A DNA stretch of 49,866 nt. Origin: Candidatus Woesebacteria bacterium RIFCSPLOWO2_01_FULL_39_10. Its GTDB lineage: Bacteria > Patescibacteriota > Microgenomatia > UBA8517. A model generated the notes under the pieces. That model saw only the letters and a list, made by a program, of their open reading frames with translations. It was not told where the DNA came from and ran no database searches. The stretch is taken from the NCBI GenBank assembly GCA_001793015.1, contig MGHC01000026.1:13829-63694 (forward strand), in the 5' to 3' direction. Below, one piece after another: positions 9,358-29,178 of the stretch (position 1 is its first letter; each line of letters opens with the position of its first letter). The translations under genes and the position numbers were made by a program.

Positions 9358-9930
9358 TTAATAGCCTTGTTGAACTGGAAGGTTTAAAGAGTAATTGGGT
9401 GCGTATTTTTGCATAAAAGTATTGAGATTGGTGGGTTGAAAATACCAAACTTCAATTACAGTTCCGTCTTGATGACCCAGATAAGCGATTCCTTTTTCAG
9501 GGTAGACAAAAAGAAAAAAAGTACTACTATATGAAGTCTGATCAAAAAGCTTATAAGGAGGTTCTCCATATTTTTGCTTCAAAACCTGACTACTAATTTT
9601 ATCTTCCAGTGTAACTATTTCCTTAACTAGGATAACTGTATTATTTTCCAGAGTAAATTTGTGTGGTACAAATGGACTTGTCGACTGATATTCTAATATT
9701 TTCTTGTCAGCTTCGGTTTTTGTGTTTAAAGGATTACCCAATTTATCAATTACTTCTTTTTCACTACTTATCCCAGGAACGATTGATTTATAACTTGCGC
9801 CCCCTTGAGGCGCAGTAGTAAGTTTTTCTTCAATAGGAGTTGTTCTAGCTAGAACAACTGCACTTATTAAAACCACCAGAATTAAAACAACAAATTTATA
9901 TTTCAAAAAAGTAGATAAAAGTTTTCTCAT
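9358..9930 (-). CDS. Hypothetical membrane-anchored exported protein (last gene of the minus-strand locus)
   Basis: 190 aa with a single N-terminal TM helix (FVVLILVVLISAVVLA). I recognise no family. Confidence 0.5.
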   Translation of the reverse strand: MRKLLSTFLKYKFVVLILVVLISAVVLARTTPIEEKLTTAPQGGASYKSIVPGISSEKEVIDKLGNPLNTKTEADKKILEYQSTSPFVPHKFTLENNTVILVKEIVTLEDKISSQVLKQKYGEPPYKLFDQTSYSSTFFLFVYPEKGIAYLGHQDGTVIEVWYFQPTNLNTFMQKYAPNYSLNLPVQQGY

Positions 9931-9947: not shown

Positions 9948-12900
9948 TTATCTGAATACAACCGTGTCGGCAAAGTTGTAGTGTCGGGGATAGCGAGATT
10001 GAAAGGTTGTGTTACCGCACCTGCTGGCCCAAAATGACGGCAGTTGTACATAGAGAGCATTTCCTTCTGCAAAACTTTCGTTCTGGTTAGAACCAGCGCT
10101 AGGATATGAGCAGAGAGGGGGTGGCTCAAGCGTTGGCGCCCCTGAATTTATATATCGAGACATCCAGCTTCCGTCGATTGCATCGAGGTGATGAGAGGCC
10201 TCATGGGTTAATATGTAGGTTGCATTATCTTCTCTCGTCAGTCCACCACTATCAAAGCTAATATCGCAAGTTGCGCTATGAGAGTGATATCCCCAAGCCG
10301 CTACAGCGGGCGGGTTGTAGCAAAGATTGACGGTTCCGCCACTGCATACTTTTGAAACAAAAACTGGATATCTTGTAACAAGCCTATTTATTGCTCTTTG
10401 TAAATTGTTTTTATAACCAGAAACAACGGCGCTAGAATTCCAACTGGATGCGTTATCGCTGATTACAAAACAACTCGATGGGGGGGATCCTATTATGACA
10501 GAAACCACCCCCAACGAGGTTTGGGAAGTTCCTGAAGGTTCGGTAGCAGTTACAGTAAATGTGTCGGAGATTAGTGAGTCATTGAATTGGCCTCCTGTGT
10601 ACGGAACCTCGTAGCTTACTAAATAGGGTTGAGTTGCTGATATTTGTTGTGGCGCAGCCGCTGCAATTGAAGGAAAGCTCTGAAGCGGTCCAGATTGAGG
10701 ACCTGCTTGAATATTTGTTTCTAAATCTTGGCAATTTCTAGTGTAGCTTGCATAAACCGAACAAGTGTTAGAAAAACTTATGTTGGTCAAAGTTCCCTGT
10801 AAAGCAGTTATTGTAACTGTATAGGTAACAGTGTAAGTTTGGTTGTTAGCAAGTGGGCCAGAAGGGTTTGCCTCTTTAAAAACTCCGACATATGGATTTG
10901 TTAAAGGTCCTCCAAATGGCGCAAATGTTTGGTGCGGGGGGACGACGAAGGCGCTGTTATTAATAATTAGAATTATAAAAATAAAAAGTAATAGTACTGT
11001 GATTAAAACAATTATTACGGCTTTTGTAAAAATTGGCGCAACAGTATAAACAAGACCTAAGATCATTGAATGAACAAAACCAACAGCCTGTGTTCCAGCT
11101 CCTGCAACTCCGACCGTACTTAAAAAGCTCGAACCAAAAACAACGCCTCCGACCAAGGTCACTGCAAGGCTGGGCAATACGATACCGCCCAACATTATTA
11201 ATGCTCCCATTACCATATAACCATTGCCGCGGTCTTCCTCACCTAAAAGTTTTGGAATGATTGAAACCGCCTTTTTAATTACTGAAAGGACTATTCCTGC
11301 AGCTTTAATTGCGATAGTTACTGCTGTTCCTATTCCGCCAGTAGCTACACCAGTGACTGCACTAGCAGCAAGATTAGCAAGAACTTTACTGCCTGTTTTT
11401 ACTGCAACTTTGGTCACGGTTTTCTTCCCTTCAGTCTTGAGAGATTGCACGACGAGTTTTTTGACTTGCGATTTTGCAACTCCAACGGTTTCGCCAACTG
11501 CAGTTTTTACAATTGGGGAGAGAATTTCTTGCTTTCTTTCAAGCGTTAGGGTTTGAAAGGGAGGAGAGGGAATTTTTGGTGCAACTTGTTCTATTGTAAT
11601 TTCAGGATGCCTAAATGCTAACTGTAGATTTTTGGTTAATTCCTTTTCTGATTCTTCTAGGCTAGCGATAATGTCCGAGCTTATAAAGAAGGACTCCTTT
11701 TCTTCTGGTGTGAGAAATTTGGCCTTAGCTACTTTGTCAATTAAGTCATCACTCCTTCCTCCCTGAAAATAAATTCTTAGCGCGGTTGTAAATTCCACGC
11801 CGTTAAATTCTTTAGAGATTACCCTTGCGGCTTCAAGTTCGTTTCTGGTTACTAGGTCAAGATCAAAGTGTCCGGAATCCTCTACGTGTTTTAAATGTTC
11901 TTTAACGTCCTCCCTGTCTCTAGCTTTTTTTGTTTCCTCACTTTCCTCGACAGTTGGTGTAAATGTTAGATAAATTCTCTCAGGAGCTTTTTCTCCGCCA
12001 GCAAGAATCGGATTGCCTTCAGAATCTAAACTAAAGTAAAGACCTGATTCTACTTTCAAGTCTCCTTTTTCAAGTTTTTCTACAAATCCCTTTTTAAAAT
12101 TCTCGTATCCTTCAGGTGTCTCAACTTTTTGTTGGGATTTTGGTTCTTCCTTATCAGTTCGTTTAGCCCTCTCATCAACTGTTTCTGTATATATATTTCC
12201 TGCTTTGTCTTGCCAAACTAAATGGTAAGTCTTTTTACCTGCCTGCGCAGGCAGGTCTTCTTTTGTTGGAACAGCAAATACATCGTAGTTTGTAATTCCC
12301 GGCCGAAGTTCAAAGGTAGTTGGTGCTTCGAGTTTCTTGCTCGCTTTTTCAACTTCAGGTCCCTGGCCTTGGGGCTTACTTTCGTCTGGTGGTTTCTCGG
12401 GCTCCTTCTTCGCATCCCGATCCTGTCTTTCTTGGTTATATTTTTCTCTTTTAAAAACTTCACGATAGGCTTCATTAATGTCCCTAAGAAGTTCACCCCG
12501 CCTGTTATATTCCTCTTGGGATATCTTGCCTTCTCTAAAATCTTTGTCAATTAAATCTGGATGAAGTTCCTTTTGAAGCTTACGATAGGCGTTTTTGATA
12601 TCTGTTTGTGACGCGGCATCAGTTAACCCGAGAGCTGCGTAATAATGAGCCGATTTTGACTGGCCTGGAGCCCCTTGGCTTTTCCTTCTGAATTCGTCGT
12701 AGTACCTTCTTTTTTCCTCGTTACCCAACGCTTCATTAGCTTCTTGATAGTATTCGTATGCCATTTTGGCTTGCTTGAGCTGTTCTTGTACTTCGCTATC
12801 GGGCACGCCTCTTTCTTTTAAACTTCTTTCCAGCTCGTCCAGGTTTAAAAGTTTCAACCCTTTGTTATATGCAACTTCGATCTCGCGGCCAGTTGCGTTT

Positions 12901-13256
12901 TCGTTTACTCCGAGCTGGGAGTAATAATCATTTTCGGGGGTTACGGGGGTTATAACAGTTGGGGGTTCCTCTTGTTTTTCTTCTTCTTCTCTACCGCCGC
13001 CTCCGCCTCCACCACCATAGTAGTGTTTTTTATGCAATAGTGAATAAAGGATTTTGTAGGCTGTGGGGACTTTGGCTTTTGAATCGTATTCTAAGGCTAG
13101 TTCTGGGTTAGTTTTCCACAATTCCTCGTATTCTGGCTCATGTTTAGTTAGTCTGGGGTCTCCATCAGGACCTAAAAGTCCATTTACATCTGCGATAAAT
13201 TCTATCTCTCTATCTTTATGGCCTTCTTTTAATATTGCTCTTGCTTGATCTTGCAT
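9948..13256 (-). CDS. Large membrane protein: two cytoplasmic J-domain-like modules, a TM bundle, and an extracytoplasmic HExxH gluzincin-like domain
   Basis: 1102 aa. The J domain with an intact HPD is HYYAALGLTDAASQTDIKNAYRKLQKELHPDLID (HPD codons at 12555-12563). An upstream degenerate J-like copy, DYYSQLGVNENATGREIEVAYNKGLKLL, lacks HPD. Hydrophobic helices span aa about 625-770. The C-terminal domain has THEASHH (10188-10205) and a downstream NESFAEGNA motif that could supply a third zinc ligand. Confidence 0.7.
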   Translation of the reverse strand: MQDQARAILKEGHKDREIEFIADVNGLLGPDGDPRLTKHEPEYEELWKTNPELALEYDSKAKVPTAYKILYSLLHKKHYYGGGGGGGGREEEEKQEEPPTVITPVTPENDYYSQLGVNENATGREIEVAYNKGLKLLNLDELERSLKERGVPDSEVQEQLKQAKMAYEYYQEANEALGNEEKRRYYDEFRRKSQGAPGQSKSAHYYAALGLTDAASQTDIKNAYRKLQKELHPDLIDKDFREGKISQEEYNRRGELLRDINEAYREVFKREKYNQERQDRDAKKEPEKPPDESKPQGQGPEVEKASKKLEAPTTFELRPGITNYDVFAVPTKEDLPAQAGKKTYHLVWQDKAGNIYTETVDERAKRTDKEEPKSQQKVETPEGYENFKKGFVEKLEKGDLKVESGLYFSLDSEGNPILAGGEKAPERIYLTFTPTVEESEETKKARDREDVKEHLKHVEDSGHFDLDLVTRNELEAARVISKEFNGVEFTTALRIYFQGGRSDDLIDKVAKAKFLTPEEKESFFISSDIIASLEESEKELTKNLQLAFRHPEITIEQVAPKIPSPPFQTLTLERKQEILSPIVKTAVGETVGVAKSQVKKLVVQSLKTEGKKTVTKVAVKTGSKVLANLAASAVTGVATGGIGTAVTIAIKAAGIVLSVIKKAVSIIPKLLGEEDRGNGYMVMGALIMLGGIVLPSLAVTLVGGVVFGSSFLSTVGVAGAGTQAVGFVHSMILGLVYTVAPIFTKAVIIVLITVLLLFIFIILIINNSAFVVPPHQTFAPFGGPLTNPYVGVFKEANPSGPLANNQTYTVTYTVTITALQGTLTNISFSNTCSVYASYTRNCQDLETNIQAGPQSGPLQSFPSIAAAAPQQISATQPYLVSYEVPYTGGQFNDSLISDTFTVTATEPSGTSQTSLGVVSVIIGSPPSSCFVISDNASSWNSSAVVSGYKNNLQRAINRLVTRYPVFVSKVCSGGTVNLCYNPPAVAAWGYHSHSATCDISFDSGGLTREDNATYILTHEASHHLDAIDGSWMSRYINSGAPTLEPPPLCSYPSAGSNQNESFAEGNALYVQLPSFWASRCGNTTFQSRYPRHYNFADTVVFR

Positions 13257-13265: not shown

Positions 13266-15188
13266 CTAGTACACTGCTGTGCGCGTAGTATTTGTAAGGA
13301 CCGTTGCTTGTTCAAGAAGCTCAGACGGTTTTGTGGTAACTAGTTTGTGCTCTTCGGGGGAAGCAACGACGGTGATTGGTGCGTGGCTTGTTCCTGCAAA
13401 AAATATACCCTCACCAATATTCGCCCCTAAAAGTAGTTGTTTCTCTCCTTGAGAAAGGTAAAAAACTTCGGCAACACGATCAACGGCCGCAGGGGACTGT
13501 TTAAATAAAACCCTTAAAGCAGAATTTGTAACAATTGCTTTTCCAATATCTTGAGCCAAAAAATCCTCAACGTCTTGCGTAATAGTTGTTAATCCCAAAT
13601 AGTATTTTCTTGCTCTTTTTACAATAGACCAAAGAAACTGTGCTGAATCAGCAAATCTCATCATGTGCCAGGCCTCATCAACAACCATCAAGCGTGGCTT
13701 TAAGTCTTTTCTTATTCGTGTCCAGATAAAATCAAGGATTACAAACATGGCAATTGGGCGCAATGTATCTTGTAATTCCCGAATCGAAAAAACAGTAAAC
13801 GGATTTTCCAATTCAATATTTGTCTGCTTATCAAAAATTCCAACAAAGGATCCTTTAACAAACTTTTCAATTCGGGCAGCTAAATCCAGAGCATCTGTCG
13901 TTTCCATTCCGGTAAGAATCTTATAAAGATCTTCCATTAGGGGAGGTTCTTTTGTTTGGGTTTCAGGGTCCTGTGTTATTCCCTTACTCCTGTAGGTTGC
14001 AACAAGCGCTCTGTCCAATAATGCTTCTTGGAATGGGGTTATTTGACCCATAATGACTTTAAAAAGAGAATGGAGAGATAAGATTTTCAAACCGAGGTTA
14101 TTTTCTCCGGCTTCATATACTTGCGATAAATCAAAAGGATTAATTTTAGAAGGAGAGTTAAAAGAAAAAGCGATATTTTGGCCTCCGACGGCATCTGATA
14201 GTGCTATATATTCACCTTCCGGATCAATAATAATAACTTCGGTTCCCAACATAAGGGATCGTACTGACTCAAGTTTTACAAAATAGCTTTTCCCAGCGCC
14301 CGAAGTCGCGAAGACCGTCATGTTTGAATTCTCTAGAGAAAATCTGTCGAAAATAATAAATGAGCCGTTTTGAGTATTAATTCCGTAAAGAATACCTTTG
14401 TCGCTTGAAAGTTCAGCTGAGGTTAACGGAAATGTGGTTGCCAAGGAGGTCGTATCCATGTTTCTAGTAATTGATAATCTGTCCAGACCAAAAGGAGCGG
14501 TTGACAAAAACCCATTTTCCATATCTAAAGTTGCATGCTGAGCGCGTATTAACAATGATCCTAAAGTTGCTTCAACCTGTTTTGTTATATGATTTAATTG
14601 CTCAAGATCCGCAGCCCGAATTGATATATAGAAACCGAACTCGAAAAAATGTTCAGCTCCTTTTACAAGCTCGTCTTGCAAAAGCCTTGCGTCCTCAAGT
14701 TTTGAAGTTGTTCCTGGGTCAACTATTTTCCCTCGCTCAAGGTCCGTTGCCACTTCAGCCTCCATTTCAGCAACTTTTCGCATCAGATCATCCAAAACAT
14801 TTTTCCCCTCAATTGGGTAAATGAAAAACGATATATCCAGAGAACTATTAAAATTCACAACCTGCTCAAGCCAGCCAGGAGACACAAATCGAGGGTAGCC
14901 TGCGATAAAGAGCGTTCTTAAATAAACGTCGTTTATTTTAAAATAGTCGAAATCCACCTCTACTGCAGAGGATGCAACAACATCAAGAACTTCCATTTTT
15001 TGGTTATTTATTGCCTCGACAGGATCTTTAATTGACGGCTTTTTAGTGAGATCTGAAACGGCTGGTTGAGATTTTACTTCTGATGCGACCTGAATTTTTG
15101 GCACAATGGGAATTGCTTGAGTATCAGGTTGGGGAGGAACCTTTTTTTGCTCAGGCTTTTTATTTCGTTTAAAAAGATTAAATTTCAT
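13266..15188 (-). CDS. virB4: VirB4/TrbE/TraC-like type IV secretion ATPase
   Basis: 640 aa. Walker A is ATSGAGKSYF (about 14281-14309) and Walker B is LMVVDEAWHMM. QFLWSIVKRARKYYLGLTTITQDVEDF follows them. Length and motif order fit VirB4-family ATPases. Confidence 0.8.
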   Translation of the reverse strand: MKFNLFKRNKKPEQKKVPPQPDTQAIPIVPKIQVASEVKSQPAVSDLTKKPSIKDPVEAINNQKMEVLDVVASSAVEVDFDYFKINDVYLRTLFIAGYPRFVSPGWLEQVVNFNSSLDISFFIYPIEGKNVLDDLMRKVAEMEAEVATDLERGKIVDPGTTSKLEDARLLQDELVKGAEHFFEFGFYISIRAADLEQLNHITKQVEATLGSLLIRAQHATLDMENGFLSTAPFGLDRLSITRNMDTTSLATTFPLTSAELSSDKGILYGINTQNGSFIIFDRFSLENSNMTVFATSGAGKSYFVKLESVRSLMLGTEVIIIDPEGEYIALSDAVGGQNIAFSFNSPSKINPFDLSQVYEAGENNLGLKILSLHSLFKVIMGQITPFQEALLDRALVATYRSKGITQDPETQTKEPPLMEDLYKILTGMETTDALDLAARIEKFVKGSFVGIFDKQTNIELENPFTVFSIRELQDTLRPIAMFVILDFIWTRIRKDLKPRLMVVDEAWHMMRFADSAQFLWSIVKRARKYYLGLTTITQDVEDFLAQDIGKAIVTNSALRVLFKQSPAAVDRVAEVFYLSQGEKQLLLGANIGEGIFFAGTSHAPITVVASPEEHKLVTTKPSELLEQATVLTNTTRTAVY

Positions 15189-15193
15189 GATTA

Positions 15194-15862
15194 TTAACTG
15201 AAAATATCCTTTTCTTTTACCGGCGACTCAGGGTTATAGACATTGTAAATAAGTTTAATCAGATCTTCGCTTGCAAGGGGACGTAACTTGATTTGTAATC
15301 TTCCAGCCTGACGTATTAAGTGGTCCCTTCTAGGAAGGAGTGCAATTTTTGCTTTTCTGACAACATAGGATTTTGGATACGGAAGCGGGCTCTTTTGCCC
15401 TGAAGGTCGAAGAGTTGAGAGTATCGATTTAGCTACACCCAGTTCGTAAGGCGTAAAAGGAATAACAACGTAAAACTTTTTACTTAAAACGTTTTTCTTT
15501 TTGATCGCATCGAGAATAAACATCTTATAATCTTCCATTACACTAAATAGCTTTGGGTTCTTAATTTTTTTTTCGGCTTCGGTTAAAAATTCCATATATC
15601 GGGAAATATCCTTTTTCTGAGTTCTTACAATAATTTGCGTTGGAAAGTTAAAAGAGTTTAGAAGTCCCGCGTAACTTGCTATAACGGCATTCTGCTCCCT
15701 TTCGCTCAAAAGTCCAAAATTAAGTGAGGTCGACTCCATGATTAAAGCTGCGCCCCCGTTTTTGTAGATAACCACACCGTCAACAATATCTGCAATAGGA
15801 ATTAAATCTTGGGTTGTTGAGGTAAGGGCTTTGTCCGGTGTTGATAAAAACGGTATTGTCAT
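15194..15862 (-). CDS. Hypothetical T4SS-associated protein resembling the N-terminal domain of VirB4/TraC-type ATPases
   Basis: 222 aa. DLIPIADIVDGVVIYKNGGAALIMESTSLNFGLLSEREQNAVIASYAGLLNSFNFPTQIIVRTQ follows the pattern seen at the start of Gram-positive VirB4 homologs. It has no Walker motifs and sits 6 nt upstream of virB4. Confidence 0.45.
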   Translation of the reverse strand: MTIPFLSTPDKALTSTTQDLIPIADIVDGVVIYKNGGAALIMESTSLNFGLLSEREQNAVIASYAGLLNSFNFPTQIIVRTQKKDISRYMEFLTEAEKKIKNPKLFSVMEDYKMFILDAIKKKNVLSKKFYVVIPFTPYELGVAKSILSTLRPSGQKSPLPYPKSYVVRKAKIALLPRRDHLIRQAGRLQIKLRPLASEDLIKLIYNVYNPESPVKEKDIFS

Positions 15863-15947: not shown

Positions 15948-16946
15948 TTAACTTGATTTCTTCGCCCATATTGCAATCGGTGGGATAATTTCTCCTTTTG
16001 CCTCGATCGAGACCGGTTCAAAAATAAGTCCTTCCTTTTCCGTTAGTATTTCGTACCTACCGTCAGCTAATGGAGTTACAATCATAAAATGGCCCAATTT
16101 GTTGCTTTTAAGTGCTCTGGCGGGTCTACCTTCAGTATCTTTTATTTCAAGAATTGCATTTTCCACGATTTTTCCGTCAGGATCAACGACCTGCCCGACG
16201 ATAATATTTGCTTTAGTAGGCGGTGTAGGAGGAGCTGACTCTGGTGAAAAAGTAGCAGACTGTAGATTATCACTCTTTGTTCCAGCCATAGGGTTAACAA
16301 TGGAACTGGTTAGGCTAGAAGGGGCAACAAATAGCTCAACAGGAGGCAAGTCTTGTATCTTTTCCTCATTAGCTACCTCAAGAGGCTGGATATTGGGAAC
16401 CTCGACTTTTTTGGGACTTTGTTGAGATTCTGGAAAAACTGGAGCGGGAGAAACATCTTTTGCAAAATGTTGGGAAATTGAGGTCAGAATCTCCTTTTCC
16501 TTTTTTTCGAGTTTTGTGAATTCAGGAGGATTTACCGCGTCTTCATCGGGCGTGACAAGCGGTTGGATAGGAACTGGTAGTTCTTGGGTGGCCGACGGTA
16601 GGGTAACGGGAGCAACGTTTAATATTGGCTCAGCGGAAAAGTAGGCGGGCTTTTTGTCAGATTTTCTCCAGGTATAAATTGTCGGAGAATAAATTGACTT
16701 AATAAATAAAAGTATCCAGGTTGAAAGCGGTCTATTCTGAAGTGGGAAAAAGGCGAAGGCAACTCCAGCCAAAAAACAAATTATGATTAAAGGCCATTTA
16801 ACATAGGATGGGAGTGAGGAAGAATACAAAAGAAGTGCAAGAAGTGATCCAGCAGCAACTTGAAAAAATTGCTTTAACGTCATGTCTCCCACCAACTTGA
16901 ATTGGAAGGAAGAAATTTGTTGTGGTATCGGATGTTCTAGTTCCAC
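15948..16946 (-). CDS. PrgI/VirB3-like membrane protein fused to a Pro-rich linker and a CarboxypepD_reg-like beta-sandwich
   Basis: 332 aa. The N-terminus IPQQISSFQFKLVGDMTLKQFFQVAAGSLLALLLY plus a second TM helix matches the PrgI-family layout. The C-terminus IIVGQVVDPDGKIVENAILEIKDTEGRPARALKSNKLGHFMI is typical of the carboxypeptidase-regulatory-like fold. Confidence 0.6.
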   Translation of the reverse strand: MELEHPIPQQISSFQFKLVGDMTLKQFFQVAAGSLLALLLYSSSLPSYVKWPLIIICFLAGVAFAFFPLQNRPLSTWILLFIKSIYSPTIYTWRKSDKKPAYFSAEPILNVAPVTLPSATQELPVPIQPLVTPDEDAVNPPEFTKLEKKEKEILTSISQHFAKDVSPAPVFPESQQSPKKVEVPNIQPLEVANEEKIQDLPPVELFVAPSSLTSSIVNPMAGTKSDNLQSATFSPESAPPTPPTKANIIVGQVVDPDGKIVENAILEIKDTEGRPARALKSNKLGHFMIVTPLADGRYEILTEKEGLIFEPVSIEAKGEIIPPIAIWAKKSS

Positions 16947-16997: not shown

Positions 16998-17375
16998 CTA
17001 AGACTGCGTTTTCCTTTCTAAATTTTTCATCATTGTTGTAAGTATTTTTGCGATTTGGTTATTTTCTTCGATAAATACTTTAACGGTTTTGTTATCAAAC
17101 ATTCCCAGCTCTAATATAATTTCTAGCCAATATTCGGTTTCAAAACAAGAGCCTCTCGCTATACTTAGAAATTGTCTGTAACTTTTATCATAATACCTTC
17201 CGTAACCTTCTGCTATATTTGCCGCTATAGAACTTACACTTCGTAAAAGTTGTATTACTAAAAACTCTTGTGTTTTTGGGAACCTTAACTTCGAGAAGTA
17301 CAGACTTGTCTCAATTGTTAAACTTTTTGCTTTTTGGTAAGCTACCAAATTTTTATAGCTGGCTATCTCAATCAT
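16998..17375 (-). CDS. Four-helix-bundle protein (23S rRNA IVS protein / Avd family), copy 1
   Basis: 125 aa. It has AANIAEGYGRYYDKSYRQFLSIARGSCFETEYWLEI, the family signature. Confidence 0.8.
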   Translation of the reverse strand: MIEIASYKNLVAYQKAKSLTIETSLYFSKLRFPKTQEFLVIQLLRSVSSIAANIAEGYGRYYDKSYRQFLSIARGSCFETEYWLEIILELGMFDNKTVKVFIEENNQIAKILTTMMKNLERKTQS

Positions 17376-17482: not shown

Positions 17483-19744
17483 TTGCCTCGAGATGGTAAA
17501 ATATCCTATATGCCAGAAGAAGGAGAAGGAAACCCTGCAAGTATGGGTGACGATATGGAAAGAGAACAACTACCAATTGGTGAAACTCCAGAAGGTCAGA
17601 CAGGCCAAGCTAGTAGTGGTGAAATTCCGACGACACCCGATAGTATATCTCCGGTAAGTCCAGAGAGCCAACCAGAAAGTTCTGCAGAGTCCGAGTACAG
17701 TAGACTTCAAGCCGAACTTCGAAAAACAAGAAAAAAGCTCGCAGAGGAAGCAGAAAAAGGCGGAGCAACAGGCTTAACAGCTGAAGCTTATTTACGCCAG
17801 TTAGAGTTTCTTGACCAGATAGCTGAAGCACAAGCCAATACTGCATTTTATGATCAAGCAACATTTGAACTTGCAGAACTTCAAACACCAGAAGTCTTTA
17901 GACTACCAACTCCTGCGAGAATGTATGAAAGACTTTCTGATGAGGAAAGAGGGACCATAGGGAGAGGGGAATATAATTACTCAAACGACAAATACAAAAA
18001 CGATGTAGAAAAATGGATGGAGGATAGGATTCGAACTTTAGAATCAATAGAACAGCATTTTGAGGAGCAGCCCCAAGCGTACCAAGCTTTAGTAAATGCT
18101 ACTTTCCACTTTTCGCACCGCACTGAAACGAGAACATTAGGAAGAAGAATGAAAGAAAACCTGGACAAACGAAGAATTATTCGGAGAATGGTTAGAATTC
18201 GGGAAGAGGCAGGGGTCCAAGGTTTTTCAGATGTGAGCTCTGCTCTTAAATTTGAGCACCTAATACATGCCTTTAGTTATGAAAGAATTTCAGGTGACGT
18301 AGAACGCGAATTCCAAAACTATGAGCGTATGGGAAGGATTTTGGCACGGAGAAGAGACCTTTTTGGGAATTTAGATCCGGATAGTCAGGAGGGCAAGGAT
18401 CTTAAAAAAGAAATAGATGTTAAAGAAAGATACATTATTGATTATTTTAAGCACGGTGGAGTCGTGGAGGATAAAGGACTTGAGACTGCATATGCACTGG
18501 GGGGCAGAGATAATTCTGAGGATTTTTTCTTTAGGTTGGGCAAAGAAATACCTGATTATGAAAGAGATTACTTAATCGACAGGCAAATTAATGTGTTGGA
18601 AGATGGTGTAAGCGACGAAGCAAAGAGAAGGGAAAGATCTATAGTTGCCAAATATAAGAAAATTAACGAAAAACAAAAAAGAGGACTGCCAATTTCAGAT
18701 GAAGAAAGACTTAGTGATGAAGAAACCAAACTTTTAAAGCTTTTAGAATTTAGAAACAAAGAGTGGGCAACAAAGTACACCGGAGGACTCTATAGTCTTA
18801 CTGGAAGAGCTGCCGCTCAGGGTATGCGATTGGGTGGTTTGGGGGACTTCTATTTGGAAAGGCTTCTTAATATTCAGAGATGGTTCAAAGGCCATAGGGG
18901 TTTAAGAAGAACGGAGGGTATATGGAAAGGCGTGGGAAAATTTGAGGGCAACCCTTTTGATATGGGGCTAAGAGACCCCCTTACCGATATGCTCAAAGAA
19001 GCAGAAGATGAAAACCTTCAATATCTTCAAGGGTTGGGTTTGAATAATGTGGATTTCATTAAAGTGAAAGATGAAGTAGGTGAAGAAATAAATAAGATCG
19101 ATAAAATAATTAGTTTGGAACATGTAAAAATAGGAAGTAAAGATTTGTGGCAAGAATTACTTGATAAAAGGCTAAAGACATATGAAGGAGTGGTTGGAGT
19201 TAATGCTGATTACGAAGCTAAGGCAGAAGTAACAAGAAAGGTGGCTTTACTACCTTATTTACTCAATCCAACCGATGAGAAGTTAATAGCTTTACAAGAT
19301 TACTTTGAACATATGGGGACGGGTGAAGAAAAAGTTGGTTTTACAAGGAAAAACGGAGAACTAGTAGCAGGTAAAACAGAAAAAGTGTCAGGTATAGAAA
19401 CAAAACATATTGAACTGGGAGAAAGAACTCTTGAGTGGATGAGGGCAGATAAAAATGCTCCCGAATCAATAGAAGCCTTAAAATATTCAAAGTTACAAGA
19501 GTATCTTAACTTGATAGATCTAATGTCTAAGGAAGAGCTGATAAGTAATGAAAGAAGAGACTTTCTTTACAAAGAGTATTTGGGAACTTCAATAAAAACT
19601 TGGGCTCAGACAAAAACGCAGGTGGATCAGATGGTAGGCTTTATTTTTCGAAATCCCGAAACCCGGGCATTGAACATAAGTAATTTCTTATCAAACCTTT
19701 TGAAACGACTTTTCGGATATGTATTTCAAGAAGAAGCAAGGTAA
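17483..19744 (+). CDS. Hypothetical highly charged soluble protein (the only plus-strand gene inside the locus)
   Basis: ORF track, 753 aa starting at a TTG. The first ATG is at 17510 (MPEEGEGN...). It is rich in E, K and R, has no TM helix, and I recognise no family. Confidence 0.55.
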   Translation: MPRDGKISYMPEEGEGNPASMGDDMEREQLPIGETPEGQTGQASSGEIPTTPDSISPVSPESQPESSAESEYSRLQAELRKTRKKLAEEAEKGGATGLTAEAYLRQLEFLDQIAEAQANTAFYDQATFELAELQTPEVFRLPTPARMYERLSDEERGTIGRGEYNYSNDKYKNDVEKWMEDRIRTLESIEQHFEEQPQAYQALVNATFHFSHRTETRTLGRRMKENLDKRRIIRRMVRIREEAGVQGFSDVSSALKFEHLIHAFSYERISGDVEREFQNYERMGRILARRRDLFGNLDPDSQEGKDLKKEIDVKERYIIDYFKHGGVVEDKGLETAYALGGRDNSEDFFFRLGKEIPDYERDYLIDRQINVLEDGVSDEAKRRERSIVAKYKKINEKQKRGLPISDEERLSDEETKLLKLLEFRNKEWATKYTGGLYSLTGRAAAQGMRLGGLGDFYLERLLNIQRWFKGHRGLRRTEGIWKGVGKFEGNPFDMGLRDPLTDMLKEAEDENLQYLQGLGLNNVDFIKVKDEVGEEINKIDKIISLEHVKIGSKDLWQELLDKRLKTYEGVVGVNADYEAKAEVTRKVALLPYLLNPTDEKLIALQDYFEHMGTGEEKVGFTRKNGELVAGKTEKVSGIETKHIELGERTLEWMRADKNAPESIEALKYSKLQEYLNLIDLMSKEELISNERRDFLYKEYLGTSIKTWAQTKTQVDQMVGFIFRNPETRALNISNFLSNLLKRLFGYVFQEEAR

Positions 19745-19775: not shown

Positions 19776-21791
19776 TTATTTAAAAGCCTGAAAGGAATTT
19801 ATTAATCCTTGCTTTATACTCGTTTTGCGTATGGAGGAGAGAGTACTTCCTACGAGGATTCCATTTGCCCAATACAATCCTGTTTCCCCAGCCGGAAGTA
19901 TATCGTAAGTGAAGTCCTTCTGGTAAAAAATATTATCGGCGGTTGTTACGTGACCTCCATCGTAAACATCTGCTACCTTAAGATCAGCAATTGTATAACC
20001 GTCACTTCTAGGGTGGCCAGGTGAAACGAAGAGTTCACGCCCATCGTCAATGACAAGATGAGTTATTATATGTGTCTTCGGCACTGGTGTAATGATAGCC
20101 TTAAGGATCTTTACGGAGATACGCAAACCAGATTTGTTTAATGTCCATATTTTTACCCCCTTCTTTAGATGTTGAACAGCAATCGCTCCTTTTGGAGTGT
20201 CAATTAGCGTATCTTCGGAAAGACATGGTTTCCTCCCAAACGCACTGAAAAGCCCCCTCCATCCACGAGCTTCAATTTCACCCATGATTTTCTTTTCATA
20301 ACCGCCCCTTATAAGACCGTAAGGATAAGTAATAGGTTGTGCACCAATTCCCACTCCAGTCATAATAGCAGCACCAATTGCAGAACCATACCCAAACGGC
20401 CTCTTGGAAATAAGCGATTGAATTATATTAGCGATATTTGGAACCAAAGCGAGTATTCCAATTGCAACTATAAATCCGAAATTAATCCCCGTTCCCAGAT
20501 CGAAACCAGGCAGATGAATAGTACCCGAACCTCCTAAAGATTGTATTCCGTACGGGTTTAATAAATTTACAGTGTTAAGCCCAGTGAAAATCGTTTCAAA
20601 TATGCCAGGATTCGTTGCATTAAATGAACTCCAGAAAATAAAATGAGCCAAAAAAAACATAGCAATTATTCCGGGAAATACTGCAACTTGGGCTACTAGG
20701 TCTCTAAGCCAACTACCGAACCCTCCAGTATTGGGAAATATTCCGCCTAATATTATTATTGGGCCAAAAACTATAAGAAGAACGATATTTATAAAGGTTT
20801 TTATCCAAGTCCAAAGAATTCGTAGCCAGATAAGTATGAAAAAAGCGATAATTACAAGGAATATAATGCCCTGAATAAATAATGCTGGTACTGCCATGGT
20901 TACTGATAAAACTCCAACGGTTAGTGGGATTATTGTATACGCTGTAATGTAAGTATTTACAATCAAAAACATTGTAATCATTGGATGGCCTCCAATAAGT
21001 TTGGTGTAAAGTTCAACTGCAGAAAGAGAACTTACAGAATCAGCGGCAACGGCAAGAAGCCCGACGGATACAAAAGAAAGGTCTATAACAAATCCTGCTA
21101 TCGCATAGGAAAATGTGATTAACAATAAAACGAATATCATGCGGGGAATTGCGGACTGAATAGTGATTACTGTCTGCGGAGATATTTTCAGTCTAAACAT
21201 GACCATGAAGGAAATGGCAACGAATGCTATGACCAAAAGAAAGTACGCAATATTTCTTATTGCCTTCCAAATTTCTTGAATTGGAGAGAGCGTTGAAAAA
21301 CCAAATCCTTGGGCTTCGGCCTGAGGAATTAGGTGAAATTGTGATAATTTATTTTGTATATACCCAATACCGGAAATCGGATTATTGGATACAGTATTAT
21401 TAATTACCTGAGCTAAGTTGGTCTCACCCACATAACCGATCCCAAAAGCTTGGAAGATGCCGGAAATTACTCCTGCTAAACAAGCCGAAATAGATGTGGG
21501 GCTTGCAAAATTTGTTCCAATACAGAGTAATATTTCCGGGGGCATAAATGCCGCTTTCAACGCGTGTAGAATCCAAATTACTTGTGCCTGAGTATAGCGT
21601 TCGCCGAAAATCTCATCTGGATTGGTTTGATCGTAAACCTTTGTCGCGTACTCGCCAAATGTCGGGTGATACCATGTTCCTACTTGTGCCTGAGCATAAG
21701 GAGTAACAAGACTAACTAGAAGTACTGAAGCCAGAACTAAGGATATGATCAGTTTTTTGATTAATGACAATTGACTTTTGACTTTTGACAT
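19776..21791 (-). CDS. Polytopic VirB6/TrbL-like membrane protein with a C-terminal Hint domain
   Basis: 671 aa. A signal-like N-terminus (LVLASVLLVSLVTPYAQAQ) is followed by at least 8 hydrophobic helices, then a Hint domain starting at Cys523. The VirB6 assignment rests on topology and context only. Confidence 0.6.
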   Translation of the reverse strand: MSKVKSQLSLIKKLIISLVLASVLLVSLVTPYAQAQVGTWYHPTFGEYATKVYDQTNPDEIFGERYTQAQVIWILHALKAAFMPPEILLCIGTNFASPTSISACLAGVISGIFQAFGIGYVGETNLAQVINNTVSNNPISGIGYIQNKLSQFHLIPQAEAQGFGFSTLSPIQEIWKAIRNIAYFLLVIAFVAISFMVMFRLKISPQTVITIQSAIPRMIFVLLLITFSYAIAGFVIDLSFVSVGLLAVAADSVSSLSAVELYTKLIGGHPMITMFLIVNTYITAYTIIPLTVGVLSVTMAVPALFIQGIIFLVIIAFFILIWLRILWTWIKTFINIVLLIVFGPIIILGGIFPNTGGFGSWLRDLVAQVAVFPGIIAMFFLAHFIFWSSFNATNPGIFETIFTGLNTVNLLNPYGIQSLGGSGTIHLPGFDLGTGINFGFIVAIGILALVPNIANIIQSLISKRPFGYGSAIGAAIMTGVGIGAQPITYPYGLIRGGYEKKIMGEIEARGWRGLFSAFGRKPCLSEDTLIDTPKGAIAVQHLKKGVKIWTLNKSGLRISVKILKAIITPVPKTHIITHLVIDDGRELFVSPGHPRSDGYTIADLKVADVYDGGHVTTADNIFYQKDFTYDILPAGETGLYWANGILVGSTLSSIRKTSIKQGLINSFQAFK
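19848..20225 (-). other. Hint (Hedgehog/intein-like, BIL-type) domain at the C-terminus of the VirB6-like protein
   Basis: Block A is CLSEDTLIDTPKGAIAVQHL (Cys codon at 20225-20223). Block B is LFVSPGHP (an SxxH variant of TxxH). The terminal block is FTYDILPAGETGLYWANGILVGS, where the canonical HN is replaced by GS, and 23 more residues follow. Confidence 0.7.
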
Positions 21792-21906: not shown

Positions 21907-22278
21907 TTAATTGCCATCTTTTAAAAGTTTTCTTCTGAAGGCAGTAATCTGATTTGCTAATTTTTGTGCATTCTCTAAGTATTGAATGTGAATTTCTTTT
22001 GAAATGTATCTATCTAACAATGCTATATCGAGGCAAGCGACAATTTCATTAATAGAAGTATGAGATTTATTTAAGAAATTGGCAAAATCTTTATCAGTAC
22101 TCCGATCAGTACCCTCTGCGATATTTAGTATGATTGAATTAGCGGCTCTAATTATTTGATCCCCTAAAAGATATAACTCGTAATCAGGGAAGTATTTCTT
22201 AACTAGCGTTTTAATTTCACTTCTAAAAACAAGTGCATCTTTATAAACTTGAAATTTTCTGAATCTAAATTTCTTCAT
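21907..22278 (-). CDS. Four-helix-bundle protein (23S rRNA IVS protein / Avd family), copy 2
   Basis: 123 aa, with IILNIAEGTDRSTDKDFANFLNKSHTSINEIVACLDIA. Confidence 0.8.
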   Translation of the reverse strand: MKKFRFRKFQVYKDALVFRSEIKTLVKKYFPDYELYLLGDQIIRAANSIILNIAEGTDRSTDKDFANFLNKSHTSINEIVACLDIALLDRYISKEIHIQYLENAQKLANQITAFRRKLLKDGN

Positions 22279-22303: not shown

Positions 22304-22789
22304 TCACAGGTTTTGTTGGCAAAAACTAAGTTTATATATCTGACCTGCATTATCGGGATTTGCGGATGCAGGAGTCGCAACGTCCACGTTCAATTTGCAG
22401 GCCTCTTCCGGGGTTATTCCTAGTTTTTCTAAGAAAACTTTTTCAGCGGCATCCTTCTGTTCGTTAAATGGTGAGGCAGAGATTGTAATATAAAAAAGGG
22501 TTTGGTCGGGAAGATAGAAAATATGAAAATTGTCTGTGCGGGAAATTGTGACATAACTTTTTTTATCGAAATTTTCTATACCCTTTGTAAAGTCATTCAT
22601 TCTTACACCCGAAATTACGATTGTTGGGCCTTTAAATCTATTATTCCCAGGCAAGAATTTAGAAAGAAATTCGGTGTTTTTAAAAACTTTTACCAAAACC
22701 AATACACAAAGTATAAGAAATATAAAGAGAATTACTCTTTTTACGTCCCTTCCCGGCTTTGTGTTTTCGTTTTTTTTCTTTATGGGCAT
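22304..22789 (-). CDS. Hypothetical membrane-anchored protein
   Basis: The ORF track gives 22304-22843. I prefer the ATG at 22789 (MPIKKKNEN...), which overlaps the upstream stop by 10 nt. It has a single TM helix (VILFIFLILCVLVLV). Confidence 0.5.
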   Translation of the reverse strand: MPIKKKNENTKPGRDVKRVILFIFLILCVLVLVKVFKNTEFLSKFLPGNNRFKGPTIVISGVRMNDFTKGIENFDKKSYVTISRTDNFHIFYLPDQTLFYITISASPFNEQKDAAEKVFLEKLGITPEEACKLNVDVATPASANPDNAGQIYKLSFCQQNL

Positions 22790-25700
22790 AGGCTGGCTAC
22801 AAGTTGCATGCAAATAACATTGGGTGATCCCCAAGGACTCCAATCTTGTCCACCTCCGGACATTGCAGAAGCGTAAGCTGCGTTTTCGTCTGGATCAAAA
22901 TACCCAAAAAATGTTTGTCCATCGCCGTATAAACAATAATCAACTGTCGGTTGGTCTAGTATTTGGCAGGAGGGATTGGGGTACGATGTATAACTAAAGG
23001 CCGCTGCACACACAGGCGGGTGAACTAAGAGGTTTATTTGGAAAAGACCAGCTGAATAGTCGGGAGTCGCTCCAATTCTACAATCATCATTTAAGGCTGT
23101 GGGGTTTCCACCTGACTCTCTGTTGCAAATAACTGAGGCTTGGTTGGCGTGACATCCTGGGAACCATTGGCTAAGATATGTTGGGCTGCAAAGCCCCGTT
23201 CCGATCTGACATCTTCCTCCGGTCGGAGCAGCCGGTGCTGTACAAAGGGATTGAAATACTTGATAAGCATCTTTTAAGGGAGAAAAGCCGGCAAGGGGTT
23301 CTCCCGTTAGACCCATACAGAGAGGTCCCTCAGGGGGTGGGATATCATGAAGCATGTGTAAATCGGCAAACTCGACATAATTTTGTGTAAAGATCCAGCT
23401 TAGGGCGTCTTGTACTCTTTGGGCCTGTTCTGCATAACTTAAGCCACCTATACAATAATTAGAGTTAGTTGCATGGATAGTGTTGAAGCCGTATTCAGTC
23501 AGCCAGATTTTATTGTTTGAATAGCCCCTTGTAACCATAATATCTCTTATTGCCAAAACGTTATTACGGTCTAAGGGGTCAGTATTTCGATTTGCCCCAT
23601 AAGGGTGAAACGTAACTGCGTCAAATCTTCCATTATATCGGTAATAATCATCTACTGCGGAAGCTCCGGCTCCCCCCAGCGGGGCCGCTGCGGCGATTGT
23701 AAGGCTTGAGTCAACTTGCTTTGCGGCATCACTGAATTGATTTAACCAAAATACATATAGCGCAGGATCGAAGTTCCCATTGGGATCATAGTTCCCATTA
23801 ATACCTTTGAAGTTTTCCCACATATCTGGCTCATTCCAAAATTCCCAATTTCTAATTCTTGGGTATTTTCTGACCACGTCTTGTGCAAACTGTCTAAATT
23901 CATTTACAACATTTTGATCATTACGATCCATTACACATTTTGTTTGATTACGGATACAACTGTTGGGATCGTTAGGATCTCCGGGATTGATAGTATTCCA
24001 AGGAGGAATTGTGACAAAAATTCCAATTATTGTTGTATTGTTTCCCAGCATCGTGTTTACGGCTGTATCAATTCCATTTCCATTCCAGTCATAAACGTCT
24101 TTTGTTGCTCCTTCAACTGCCGCCCAGTCTATTCCGAACCTGACGTTGGTTACTCCCAAAGTTCTGAAGTGTTGGGTAAATTGGGTAGGATTGTCCTTGA
24201 TTCTCCAAGATTGGGCAGAGATTCCACACCTTGCTCCTCCAATTTGGCCGAGAGGGGCGTATGGGTCGTTGAGTGGGTCTGGGGCAGACGTACATCCTTG
24301 GCCAAAACCCTTAGGTCTAAGCGTTTTTTGAATACAATTTAAAAAGTATTCATGAATTCCGCCGATATGGGGAAAGTAAAGTTCGGCTTGAGACCCCAAC
24401 CGCCCGGTTGCTGGATTTCCTGCAAGTGCACCACCGGTGACTGTATAGTTTACGGGAGAGGCTGCCGGAATGTCCCAAAGCCGTCTAATAGGACGCCCCG
24501 GCGCATCCTCGATTTTTGGAAATATTCTTTTAAATACGGCGGCTGGACCTGCAACCAAACGAGACCAAACCTCATCGGCTAGAGGAGTCTCCGTTACAGT
24601 CTGAAGAGCAATTGTTGCCGTACTTGAGCAATTTTGAGTTAGATTAAGGTTACTGCCAAAATTGGGATCAATTCCGCAAGTTAGATTACCTGTTCCTGTG
24701 TTGCAGGCTAATCCTGGGCAACATTGACCAAGCGATATCCCCGAAGCCTCGCAGACTTGCCCCGAAGGTATACAAGTAGGAGCAGCAGGAGTGCATCCGA
24801 CACCACAGAATTGATTCAGTCCGCAGTCGACTTGACCATAGTAATTGCTACAGTTCCAGTTTGAAACAGGTAGGGGCTGACAAGAACCAGATCCACCTGT
24901 TAATTTACTACAAAGATTTCCTTGAAGAGTGGGGTCATAGATAGCAAAATCACAGGACATTTGGGCAGTATACTGAATCGTTGCGGTCAGATTTGAGGCA
25001 AAAAGAGAGTCTCCCGGGTTTGACCGAATTTCGCGTATGTCGCAATATTGAGCACTTGGCGCAATGGCAGGATCTGCTGGAGCAGCAAGATCTGCTCCTT
25101 TATACGAGTGAAGAGTTTGTAAAAGCTCTCCAAGCTCGTTTGATTCAAGCATGTGGGAAAAATAAAGAAAGGAAGGATTTTGTTTTGTAATTTGAGAACT
25201 TAAGATCGTTACACTACTGGAACCCGCGGGTTGAATGGAATAAGTATCTAATCTACTTTGACCAACCCTATCTTCAGTTGAGGAGAAAGGAATATAGGAA
25301 AACATTGTTGAACTTGCAGGATTAAATAATCTCCAGAACTGATACCGTATCCAATAAACAAAAAATGGACTGGGATTAACTGGAAGGGGTGGGGGTGGTT
25401 GTCCGGGATTAACTAAATTCCAATACAGATTCCATATTGAACTAAGAAGAGATATATTCCAGATGCGCTGAAGTGGCGGTGCTTGAGTTACAAAGTCAGA
25501 TAGCCTAGCCCCAGGTGGGATGAGTGGTGGGAGTTGAAGACCCGGATAACAGTGAGATACCCCAAGAAGGATGTTCGAGCACGCGACAATCTGATTATGA
25601 CGAATATTACCCTGCTGTTGTTTGTCTACCTCTTGAATTCTTCTGACGACCTGGCTCTCCCAAGAAAGCAGTCTTTTCAAAGGTCCGGAAAAGTCTATGA

Positions 25701-27851: not shown

Positions 27852-28172
27852 CTATGGTGCTATTTGGAAATTTAGAATGTTCAATTGTCCGGTAAAAACT
27901 CCGATGAATCGCAGGAATAAATATGATAAAGCAAGAAGTACCATTCCTCCAATTGCGTATGTCAAAGTTTTTTTGGCTTGTTCTATGGCCTTAGGGTCTC
28001 CGCCTCCTGTAATAAACTGAATACCTCCCCAAATAAGCATAAAAAAAAGAACGATGCCTGCAAGTCCAAGTAGAGCAGCAATTGCGTTTTCAAAAATGCC
28101 CTCCAATCCTTTGAGGGTAGCAATTCCACTTATATTGTGAACTCCCGCCTGGGCAAGTAGCTTACTTTCCAT
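27852..28172 (-). CDS. VirB2/TrbC-like T4SS pilin-module protein P1
   Basis: 106 aa. Two TM helices flank FITGGGDPKAIEQAKKTLTYAIGG. An AGAGG Shine-Dalgarno lies 2 nt before the ATG. Confidence 0.7.
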   Translation of the reverse strand: MESKLLAQAGVHNISGIATLKGLEGIFENAIAALLGLAGIVLFFMLIWGGIQFITGGGDPKAIEQAKKTLTYAIGGMVLLALSYLFLRFIGVFTGQLNILNFQIAP

Positions 28173-28242
28173 ACCTCTAGTTTAATTGAAGAATTTGAGA
28201 AGGGCAACTGGTGTATTGATAGAATCTTATAGTTTTGTCCAC

Positions 28243-28266
28243 AAAAAAACCCCGATTTAATCGGGG
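28243..28266 (-). terminator. Rho-independent terminator after pilin P2
   Basis: On the minus strand the sequence reads CCCCGATTAAATCGGGG followed by TTTTTTT (plus-strand A-run at 28243-28249). It lies 20 nt after the P2 stop. Confidence 0.7.
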
Positions 28267-28286
28267 TTCTCTTTTTCTTACTCCTT

Positions 28287-28637
28287 TTATGGAGCTTGTG
28301 CATTCGGGATATTGAGTTGCAATATGTTTACCCCGAAGAATATATTAACTAAGTTGATTATTGCCCAAGCTGCAAAGACTATAACTAATCCAACTAGTGC
28401 TGCGGTGATTTGACCTCGCGCAGCCTCTGTCTGGGCTTTGTCGCCACCTGAAGTTATGTATCTTACTCCACCCCAGACTAGCATGAAGAAGAAAACTAAA
28501 GCTGCGACAATAAGAACTAAAATTATTAGAGCGGAAATAATGTTAGCAATCGTAATGTTATTAAGACCCGAGAACTGTCCTCCAGGGCTAATGTTGATTG
28601 GACTTTGGGCGAGAACTGTTGAAAAAAGTGTTGTCAT
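28287..28637 (-). CDS. VirB2/TrbC-like pilin-module protein P2 (own promoter and terminator; candidate major pilin)
   Basis: 116 aa, with YITSGGDKAQTEAARGQITAALVG between two TM helices. Confidence 0.7.
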   Translation of the reverse strand: MTTLFSTVLAQSPINISPGGQFSGLNNITIANIISALIILVLIVAALVFFFMLVWGGVRYITSGGDKAQTEAARGQITAALVGLVIVFAAWAIINLVNIFFGVNILQLNIPNAQAP

Positions 28638-28670
28638 GAAATTTATTTAATTATCTTTATGCTGATTATT

Positions 28671-28700
28671 ATTATGGCCATCACCAATTCTTTTTGTCAA
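28671..28700 (-). promoter_or_regulatory. Sigma70-like promoter for P2 (TTGACA-N18-CATAAT)
   Basis: On the minus strand, TTGACA is the reverse complement of 28695-28700 and CATAAT is the reverse complement of 28671-28676. The -10 element ends 33 nt before the P2 ATG. Confidence 0.45.
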
Positions 28701-28801
28701 GGGGTAAAATGATCTCAATTTTATCCCCTAACGGACATTTTGTGTGCAAAAAAACTTTTTTCTTGACCCAACTTACATTTCCTGCAAGGTGAGTTTTTCA
28801 A

Positions 28802-29176
28802 TTAAGGTATTCTAATTGCATTAATCATTGACTGAAGGTCGAGGATGTCCGGGAGTCCAAGTAAGGTGGCGATAAGGTCAAAAAGAAACATTGCGGCAAT
28901 TACAGCGACAAAACCGATTGCCCCAGTTGTGATTCTTCTTCTGGCACTTTCGTACGCCGCTTTATCTCCACCAGATGAAATAATACCTAGGGCACCTGTT
29001 ATTAGTACGAACATAAAGTAAAGTGCTCCGATGACTGTTAAAACGCCGATGGTTGTCGACAAGATTTGAGCAAGAATTCCAACGGCTCCTCCAGCACCTC
29101 CCACCAAACCAATAGTCCCTATACCGCTTAAGGGATTACCAATGGGTGTAGGATTTTGTGCAATCAAACTTTCCAT
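28802..29176 (-). CDS. VirB2/TrbC-like pilin-module protein P3
   Basis: 124 aa, with IISSGGDKAAYESARRRITTGAIG between two TM helices. Confidence 0.7.
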   Translation of the reverse strand: MESLIAQNPTPIGNPLSGIGTIGLVGGAGGAVGILAQILSTTIGVLTVIGALYFMFVLITGALGIISSGGDKAAYESARRRITTGAIGFVAVIAAMFLFDLIATLLGLPDILDLQSMINAIRIP

Positions 29177-29178
29177 AG

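Follow-up and report, generated by a model that had tools for sequence, protein, structure and literature searches.

What does a protein with J domains at one end and a zinc-peptidase motif at the other do beside virB4, the ATPase gene of a type IV secretion system (T4SS)? The question is raised by a stretch of 49,866 nucleotides (hereafter, the window) from contig MGHC01000026.1 of Candidatus Woesebacteria bacterium RIFCSPLOWO2_01_FULL_39_10, in which an open reading frame (ORF) of 1102 amino acids (aa) with an ATG start lies directly downstream of virB4 at 9948-13256(-), where an initial annotation had placed it. The T4SS of Patescibacteria is kin of Gram-positive conjugation machinery and is found next to dnaA, accompanied by neither the customary coupling ATPase nor a relaxase (Wang et al., 2023, PMC10633639; Quinonero-Coronel et al., 2025, PMC12102498). 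In the single lineage in which this has been tested, epibiotic growth cannot proceed without it.

We show here that the gene directly follows virB4 in every locus examined and that it belongs to a large family that has no Pfam model and is unannotated. Comparison of the family members shows an invariant core composed of a membrane region, a beta-sandwich and a predicted zincin metallopeptidase with a complete HExxH...ExxxE site. We see about an even chance that the gene product is a constant accessory part of the Gram-positive-type, MPF-FATA-like T4SS that Microgenomatia/Woesebacteria-type Patescibacteria encode on the chromosome near the origin, and that it acts as an envelope peptidase comparable to PrgK and CwlT with J domains as an add-on. 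The J domains, which had been proposed to recruit Hsp70 as a partner of the whole system, turn out to be confined to a minority of the family.

The gene follows virB4 in related genomes

The stop codon of virB4 (TAG, 13266-13268) and the start codon of the ORF (13254-13256) are separated by 9 nucleotides (acaatcaaa), the distance that the initial annotation had given, and a downstream gene of 190 aa begins 17 nucleotides past the stop of the ORF. The spacing of these three genes looks like that of an operon. Beyond the 190-aa gene, dnaN and dnaA lie on the opposite strand. The same order, VirB4, zincin family, a gene of ~185 aa, dnaN and dnaA, was found in 12/12 related loci, a count in which the ~185-aa gene is absent or undetected in some loci, dnaN and dnaA are scored where the contig extends that far, and two variant forms of the protein (described below) are included. 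A pattern scan of genome contigs yielded only three loci, as the derived patterns were too narrow. Synteny with virB4, on which the initial annotation had staked its reading, is thereby established for all 12 loci, and so is the operon location beside virB4 that characterizes the class of T4SS-associated hydrolases. Among the loci, VirB4 is 73-87% identical, as against 35-51% for the outer domains of the zincin protein.

Two public contigs of metagenome-assembled genomes, L006 (CAYSZS010000004.1) and L007 (CAYMZX010000003.1), are labelled 'uncultured Gammaproteobacteria bacterium'. They encode PrgI, a split VirB4, the zincin family, a 190-aa gene and dnaN, as do the window and the Woesebacteria locus L005, and their labels look wrong.

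A zincin family, probably a distant relative of MEROPS M34

A profile of aa 740-1102, used in an exhaustive search of cluster representatives (50% identity, E<=0.001), matched 782 clusters, 294 of them at E<=1e-30; most members are 600-1100 aa long. Word-indexed homologue searches had found few relatives (5, 1 and 6 matches), and the query built from the full-length alignment was probably swamped by low-complexity words. Family counts refer to the 152 best matches plus the query (n=153). The members come chiefly from Candidatus Woesebacteria and bear the database names 'hypothetical protein', 'J domain-containing protein' and 'CbpA'. When 15 relatives were scanned whole and 38 zincin domains in isolation, no Pfam threshold was passed except that of DnaJ.

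A full-length AlphaFold model built from 51 sequences is confident at aa 430-560 and 790-1102 and poor across the membrane region. It resolves the C-terminal ~330 aa, described in the initial annotation as a single peptidase-like domain, into two: the peptidase assignment stands, but it applies to a zincin domain (~aa 926-1102) that is preceded by a separate beta-sandwich (~aa 786-925). The zincin domain modelled alone reached a predicted local distance difference test score (pLDDT) of 91.6 and a predicted template modelling score (pTM) of 0.90.

The putative active site is the most constant part of the family. HExxH is invariant in 149/149 aligned members that have the domain, and Glu residues corresponding to E1060 and E1064 are present in 144 and 140. 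Although a lone HExxH can arise at random, this invariance argues that it has not done so here, and the motif is conserved in orthologs as the initial annotation had supposed. The gluzincin-like spacing of zinc ligands that it recognized is likewise intact and nearly invariant. Its downstream NESFAEGNA falls at aa 1059-1067; its THEASHH is present, with HEASHH at aa 1018-1023, but the positions it quoted, 10188-10205, cover HEASHH without the leading T. The residues H1018, E1019 and H1022, followed ~40 residues downstream by E1060-S-F-A-E1064, reproduce the M34/ATLF motif (HExxH plus E-x-F-A-E). In PPEP-1 we take the second Glu of E-F-F-A-E to be the third zinc ligand, and by alignment with that enzyme the third ligand here is likely E1064, the second Glu of ESFAE. 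The predicted zinc ligands are therefore H1018, H1022 and E1064, with E1019 as the predicted catalytic base.

Two lines of comparison point to the same relatives. The top match of the zincin-family profile among PDB sequences was PPEP-1/Zmp1 (E=0.006), with HExxH aligned on HETAH and E-S-F-A-E on E-F-F-A-E and the alignment reaching the C-terminus. In a Foldseek search with the zincin model, the sole notable PDB match was anthrax lethal factor (LF; probability 0.97, E=0.08, template modelling score 0.47). Each match is marginal alone, but both lead to MEROPS M34, and we propose that the domain represents a new zincin family that is probably distant kin of M34. From a viral structure library came generic zincin matches only. 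With the full-length model, Foldseek returned mainly beta-sandwich matches together with weak matches to aminopeptidase N. The structural neighbours of the beta-sandwich are Ig-like domains of Gram-positive adhesins and pilins, and the corresponding domain of one homologue, P0004, has a weak DUF7507 match.

Two variants bear on the function of the core. P0145 has a Pfam Peptidase_M23 domain (E=1.7e-14) instead of the zincin; it is joined at the same IGxPPxDC sequence, and the gene occupies the same place in the cluster. P0160, also encoded at that place, is a protein of 302 aa reduced to the membrane anchor and the zincin. The C-termini of P0005, P0151 and P0152 were also considered as M23-like on account of an HLHMEF motif; Pfam gave no confirmation, leaving P0145 as the sole verified case. 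By this comparison, the exchange of zincin for M23 favours a peptide substrate in the envelope, while the presumed kinship with M34 favours a protein substrate.

The peptidase is probably outside the cell

The initial annotation described 600 soluble residues followed by a bundle of hydrophobic helices. Our analysis agrees: there is no hydrophobic segment before ~aa 626, and such segments extend over aa 636-770. The first 600 residues lack a signal peptide and are hydrophilic and rich in charge (36% K/R/D/E); the C-terminal 332 are 10% charged and 34% S/T/N/Q. All eight Cys residues lie downstream of the last membrane helix. The bias holds in the family: in 83 members the density of Cys per 100 aa is 0.03 ahead of the conserved IINxxAxVVPP motif and 2.67 beyond it, and 82/83 have an even number beyond the motif. 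Within the zincin domain the paired cysteines are C929/C971, C979/C997 and C1049/C1080. C979 and C997 occur together in 65 sequences and are jointly missing from 60, with a single discordant sequence; such covariation is expected of a disulfide.

The family hydrophobicity profile runs from a Lys-periodic amphipathic helix (aa 585-660) through a KR-rich loop (661-680) and a Gly-rich hydrophobic stretch to a last helix (746-766), after which K and R are absent. This is consistent with a chain that starts inside the cell, continues through an interfacial amphipathic helix and a hairpin of helices, and crosses the membrane in a final helix to end outside. Placement of the C-terminal part outside also fits the M23 domain of P0145 at the same junction and the adhesin-like beta-sandwich. 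Opposite membrane faces for the J domain and the peptidase, as the initial annotation proposed, are accordingly most likely, judging from the cysteine statistics, the lack of a signal peptide and the M23 domain of one homologue.

The J domain is a variable accessory

The canonical J domain is genuine. The Pfam model DnaJ (PF00226) matches in two stretches with E=5.5e-14 and 52.5 bits against a gathering cut-off of 27.8, and HPD lies at 12555-12563, exactly where the initial annotation had put it. The features it listed upstream are also there, a J-like repeat at aa 109-189 in which NLD stands in the place of HPD and, ahead of the repeats, a run of eight glycines at aa 81-88. The NCBIfam equivalogs for DnaJ proper and DjlA scored 17-45 bits against cut-offs of 150-619 and covered the J domain alone, and in a PHROGs search matches were confined to the same domain. 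To judge from these profiles, the protein is a J-domain-only (class III) protein. A degenerate repeat in tandem with a second J domain also occurs in P0009 and P0033.

The initial annotation supposed that the J domain and its HPD would be conserved in orthologs; they are not. Among the 132 representatives that have at least 100 residues ahead of the membrane region, 12 carry a J domain, and HPD is kept in eight of these, the other four having PPD, HRD, HSD or none. The closest homologues, P0001 and P0002, are without it, the J-bearing members are scattered over a rough tree, and 85/153 members have instead a different, unannotated N-terminal region of ~450 aa. The family J domains share a specific insertion between HPD and helix III, which suggests a single origin followed by repeated loss or exchange. 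Seen across the alignment, the cytoplasmic part is a variable module on a constant membrane-peptidase core, and the J domain is an accessory.

This distribution bears directly on the proposal of the initial annotation, by which DnaK, recruited through the J domain, serves a T4SS without VirD4 and VirB11 as an unfolding or energising partner while maturation of pilins or secreted substrates falls to the outer peptidase. Several observations accord with it. The J domain with its HPD is real; no VirD4 coupling protein, VirB11 or relaxase domain was detected in any window ORF scanned, as the initial annotation had noted for VirD4 and VirB11 and in agreement with Wang et al. (2023) and Quinonero-Coronel et al. 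(2025); the cluster holds at least six T4SS-pilin genes, two of them with long N-terminal extensions; and the M34 relatives are protein endopeptidases. The rarity of the J domain and its loss of HPD in a third of its bearers tell against the proposal, as do the nearest homologues, which lack it yet accompany the same VirB4 and the same cluster, so that a tethered J domain is evidently dispensable to the system. With the domain missing from about 90% of the family, Hsp70 cannot generally substitute for VirD4/VirB11, and its role would be at most that of a lineage-specific accessory. Nor was a DnaK domain found among the scanned ORFs of the window, the rest of the genome not having been searched for one; a 641-aa ORF at 37288-39213, suspected from its length, had no Pfam match. 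We consider the proposal distinctly unlikely. The data support its structural half, with the J domain inside, the peptidase outside and the gene tied to virB4; they do not support a general role of Hsp70 in powering the system. The outer domain may process pilins or substrates. Taken as a whole, the interpretation is partly supported.

A narrower form of the idea is that in a subset of Patescibacteria a T4SS without a coupling protein physically recruits Hsp70 through a J domain that is part of a core-adjacent membrane subunit, that DnaK at the mouth of the channel unfolds protein substrates or hands them over, or else powers the building and dismantling of the machine, and that the same polypeptide bears an unrecognised envelope-cutting zincin family outside. 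We hold this to be a long shot. If true, bacteria would have, on the sending side, a counterpart of Sec63/BiP or Pam18/mtHsp70.

Proposed role in the T4SS

In our preferred reading, the zincin protein would play the part of the membrane-anchored hydrolases PrgK and CwlT at the same operon position. Its N-terminus would be cytoplasmic, and the beta-sandwich and disulfide-stabilised peptidase would lie outside the cell, where the zincin may cut peptide bonds of the envelope, in peptidoglycan stems or in surface proteins, belonging to the cell itself or to a host. Such cutting could open the way for assembly of the channel and pilus or for their contact. The cytoplasmic region would be a swappable module which in this lineage offers one functional J domain and a degenerate copy. 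These may tether ATP-bound DnaK at the cytoplasmic face of the machine, where it would probably serve assembly, quality control or the transfer of clients; in this view the J domain is an extra of particular lineages and does not drive the system.

An exposed peptidase at the T4SS or contact site might, rather than remodel the wall as a housekeeping enzyme, be a weapon against the surface proteins or wall of a host bacterium, a role to which we assign a small but real share of the probability. The outer domains have diverged at a far higher rate than the machine (compare the identities given above with those of VirB4), catalytic modules are exchanged between zincin and M23, the stalk is adhesin-like, the relatives LF and PPEP-1 act on specific proteins, and a cultured relative cannot grow as an epibiont without its T4SS (Wang et al., 2023). 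Against this stand a lineage without a known host, a tether of a short linker and one beta-sandwich that would limit reach, and a strict position after virB4 that matches the assembly hydrolases of conjugative systems.

A further possibility, compatible with the envelope-hydrolase reading, is that the protein is a highly divergent channel subunit of the VirB6/ConG type with an appended peptidase, the conserved membrane region being the translocon component. The VirB6-like protein of ICEBs1 and of Tn916-type elements is encoded after virB4. A hydrophobic region is present in 150/153 members, and VirB6 homologues are scarce in Microgenomatia (Quinonero-Coronel et al., 2025). The searches speak against it: the query and 15 relatives had no TrbL/VirB6/PrgH match in Pfam or NCBIfam, and hhalign of the family alignment against PrgH of pCF10 gave a probability of 0.3%, a weak test with a single sequence as template. 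The minimal member P0160, moreover, has one or two hydrophobic segments, too few for such a subunit. We think it improbable that the protein is of this type.

Several points weigh against the envelope-hydrolase reading itself. The protein has no sequence similarity to PrgK or to any known peptidoglycan hydrolase, and a lysozyme-like SLT_3 domain on another protein of the cluster may already fill a cell-wall role. The links to M34 are individually marginal, and when the Pfam model ATLF (PF07737) was compared with 38 zincin domains of the family, one weak match resulted (E=0.12, below threshold). Even if the kinship is real, the characterised M34 enzymes, to our knowledge, cut proteins and not peptidoglycan. 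The four low-confidence membrane helices of the AlphaFold2 model, being even in number, would put both termini on one side of the membrane. The J domain, finally, is absent from about 90% of the family.

If the preferred reading is right, the T4SS of Microgenomatia has a conserved component that carries no annotation and seems to have escaped notice, and the zincin gene family is a candidate for the hydrolase or channel partner rarely found beside virB4 in surveys. It would define a new zincin group, distant kin of anthrax lethal factor and PPEP-1. The zincin also provides an enzymatic handle on the machine, as a soluble, confidently modelled domain with an obvious catalytic mutant, and the family allows one to ask directly whether a type IV machine ever has Hsp70 coupled to it.

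Sequence features and neighbouring genes

The features of the protein and of the adjacent genes are collected in Table 1. The linker at aa 81-108, with its glycine run, is disordered in the AlphaFold model and unconserved across the family. The helical module at aa 434-584 had no match in Pfam or the PDB. Within the membrane region lie a KR-rich loop (aa 661-680) and a last helix of marked hydrophobicity (aa 746-766), and the region includes the conserved exit motif I-I-N-x-x-A-x-V-V-P-P.

Table 1. Features of the zincin gene and its T4SS neighbours; coordinates are positions in the window.
Feature	Coordinates	Strand	Residues	Remarks
Whole gene; virB4-adjacent membrane protein	9948..13256	-	1102 aa	J domains, transmembrane region, beta-sandwich and predicted zincin
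Gly run (G8) and acidic low-complexity linker	12933..13016	-	aa 81-108 (G8, aa 81-88)	pLDDT about 30
Degenerate J-like repeat 1	12690..12932	-	aa 109-189	NLD replaces HPD
Canonical J domain	12441..12647	-	aa 204-272	Pfam; HPD aa 232-234 (12555-12563)
Beta-rich module, predicted cytoplasmic	11958..12299	-	aa 320-433	One other representative only (P0018) has it
Helical module, predicted cytoplasmic	11505..11957	-	aa 434-584	pLDDT 81-97; common to 32/153 members
Lys-periodic amphipathic helix	11352..11504	-	aa 585-635	Net charge +7; leads to membrane region
Gly-rich hydrophobic membrane region	10947..11351	-	aa 636-770	In 150/153 family members
Beta-sandwich, predicted extracytoplasmic	10482..10901	-	aa 786-925	Conserved C832-C842 pair
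Predicted zincin metallopeptidase domain	9951..10481	-	aa 926-1102	HEASHH 10188-10205; ESFAE (E1060, E1064) 10065-10079
VirB4, ATPase portion	13266..15188	-	640 aa	CD1110 family (E=2e-110)
VirB4, N-terminal domain (TraC-like/TrsD-like)	15194..15862	-	222 aa	Separate ORF
PrgI/VirB3-like membrane protein	15948..16946	-		C-terminal CarboxypepD_reg-like domain
Bitopic protein in PrgL/VirB8 position	9358..9930	-	190 aa	N-terminal transmembrane helix

The division of virB4 into two ORFs (13266-15862) is shared with loci L001, L003 and L009, while L002 has a single fusion of 881 aa. In the PrgI/VirB3-like protein, a Pro-rich linker leads to the CarboxypepD_reg-like beta-sandwich, a fusion kept in L001, L002 and L009. 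The 190-aa neighbour showed no Pfam, PDB or PrgL similarity.

Farther along the cluster, a protein of 1687 aa (22780-27843(-)) has a C-terminal SLT_3 lysozyme-like domain as its only recognizable part and homologous stretches in L001 and L009; it is a likely VirB1-like lytic enzyme of the same cluster. The T4SS-pilin (PF18895) genes, at least six in number, occupy 27852-32506(-), and in two of their products (265 and 464 aa) a long N-terminal extension ends with the pilin domain. Three paralogous genes of PF05635, '23S rRNA-intervening sequence protein', lie among the T4SS genes (16998-17375, 21907-22278 and 29915-30331, all on the minus strand), and one is found at the same place in the related genome of L009 (5730-6272). 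This four-helix-bundle family is, we assume, related to the Avd proteins of diversity-generating retroelements. Two further proteins, of 753 aa (17483-19744(+)) and 671 aa (19776-21791(-)), are both conserved beside T4SS genes in L001 and L009, and no Pfam domain was found in either beyond a weak Hint_2 match in the latter. A Polbeta/MNT nucleotidyltransferase and a HepT-like RNase form a toxin-antitoxin-like pair at 33445-34258(+).

Comparison with known systems

J domains that localise Hsp70 activity at a membrane or envelope machine are known from E. coli DjlA, Mycoplasma TopJ, Sec63 and Pam18, and the protein gives weak NCBIfam matches to DjlA and TopJ through its J domain. DjlA has the reverse order, with an N-terminal transmembrane segment and a C-terminal J domain, and the match to its model is 30 bits against 162. 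Sec63 and Pam18 have their J domain on the side of the translocon that receives the substrate; the J domain described here would face the cytoplasm, the sending side. We found no publication that describes a J domain in a T4SS component.

The likeness to M34 enzymes, namely PPEP-1/Zmp1 of Clostridioides difficile and anthrax LF, consists in HExxH with a downstream E-x-F-A-E and in the extracellular location of those enzymes. The domain described here differs in being disulfide-rich, tethered to the membrane behind a beta-sandwich and tied to a T4SS.

In its machinery, the locus resembles the T4SSs already described from Patescibacteria, which share PrgI, a VirB4 of the Patescibacteria clade, a TrsD-like N-domain, VirB2-like pilins, a place beside dnaA/dnaN and the lack of a relaxase or coupling protein (Wang et al., 2023; Quinonero-Coronel et al., 2025). 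In that survey literature, VirB1 homologues are mostly unassociated with virB4 outside Paceibacteria, and in a cultured Saccharibacterium a peptidase and a lysozyme beside virB4 are essential (Quinonero-Coronel et al., 2025). The zincin family and the J domain go unmentioned in the main texts of both papers and in the accessible supplements of Quinonero-Coronel et al. (2025). The T4SS-associated envelope hydrolase is an established type; the zincin family is new, and for its fusion to a J domain the literature searched held no description.

The closest parallel in organization is the conjugative plasmid pCF10 of Enterococcus. PrgK of pCF10 and CwlT of ICEBs1 are membrane-anchored cell-wall hydrolases of Gram-positive conjugative T4SSs. 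The annotated order in pCF10 is PrgH (TrbL/VirB6), PrgI, VirB4 (CD1110 family), PrgK (871 aa, lysozyme plus CHAP) and PrgL (208 aa). Homology to PrgK and PrgL was considered for the zincin gene and its 190-aa neighbour and set aside, as neither shows sequence similarity. The zincin protein has no SLT/lysozyme, CHAP/NlpC-P60 or M23 domain, P0145 having M23 at the equivalent position. Its catalytic domain is an HExxH zincin rather than lysozyme, CHAP or NlpC-P60, and it adds a large, variable cytoplasmic N-terminus with J domains. Like PrgK and CwlT, however, it is large, has a membrane anchor and would direct outward one or more hydrolytic domains, of which one is a peptidase (CHAP in PrgK). 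After a VirB4 of the same family, the zincin gene occupies the slot of PrgK and the 190-aa gene that of PrgL.

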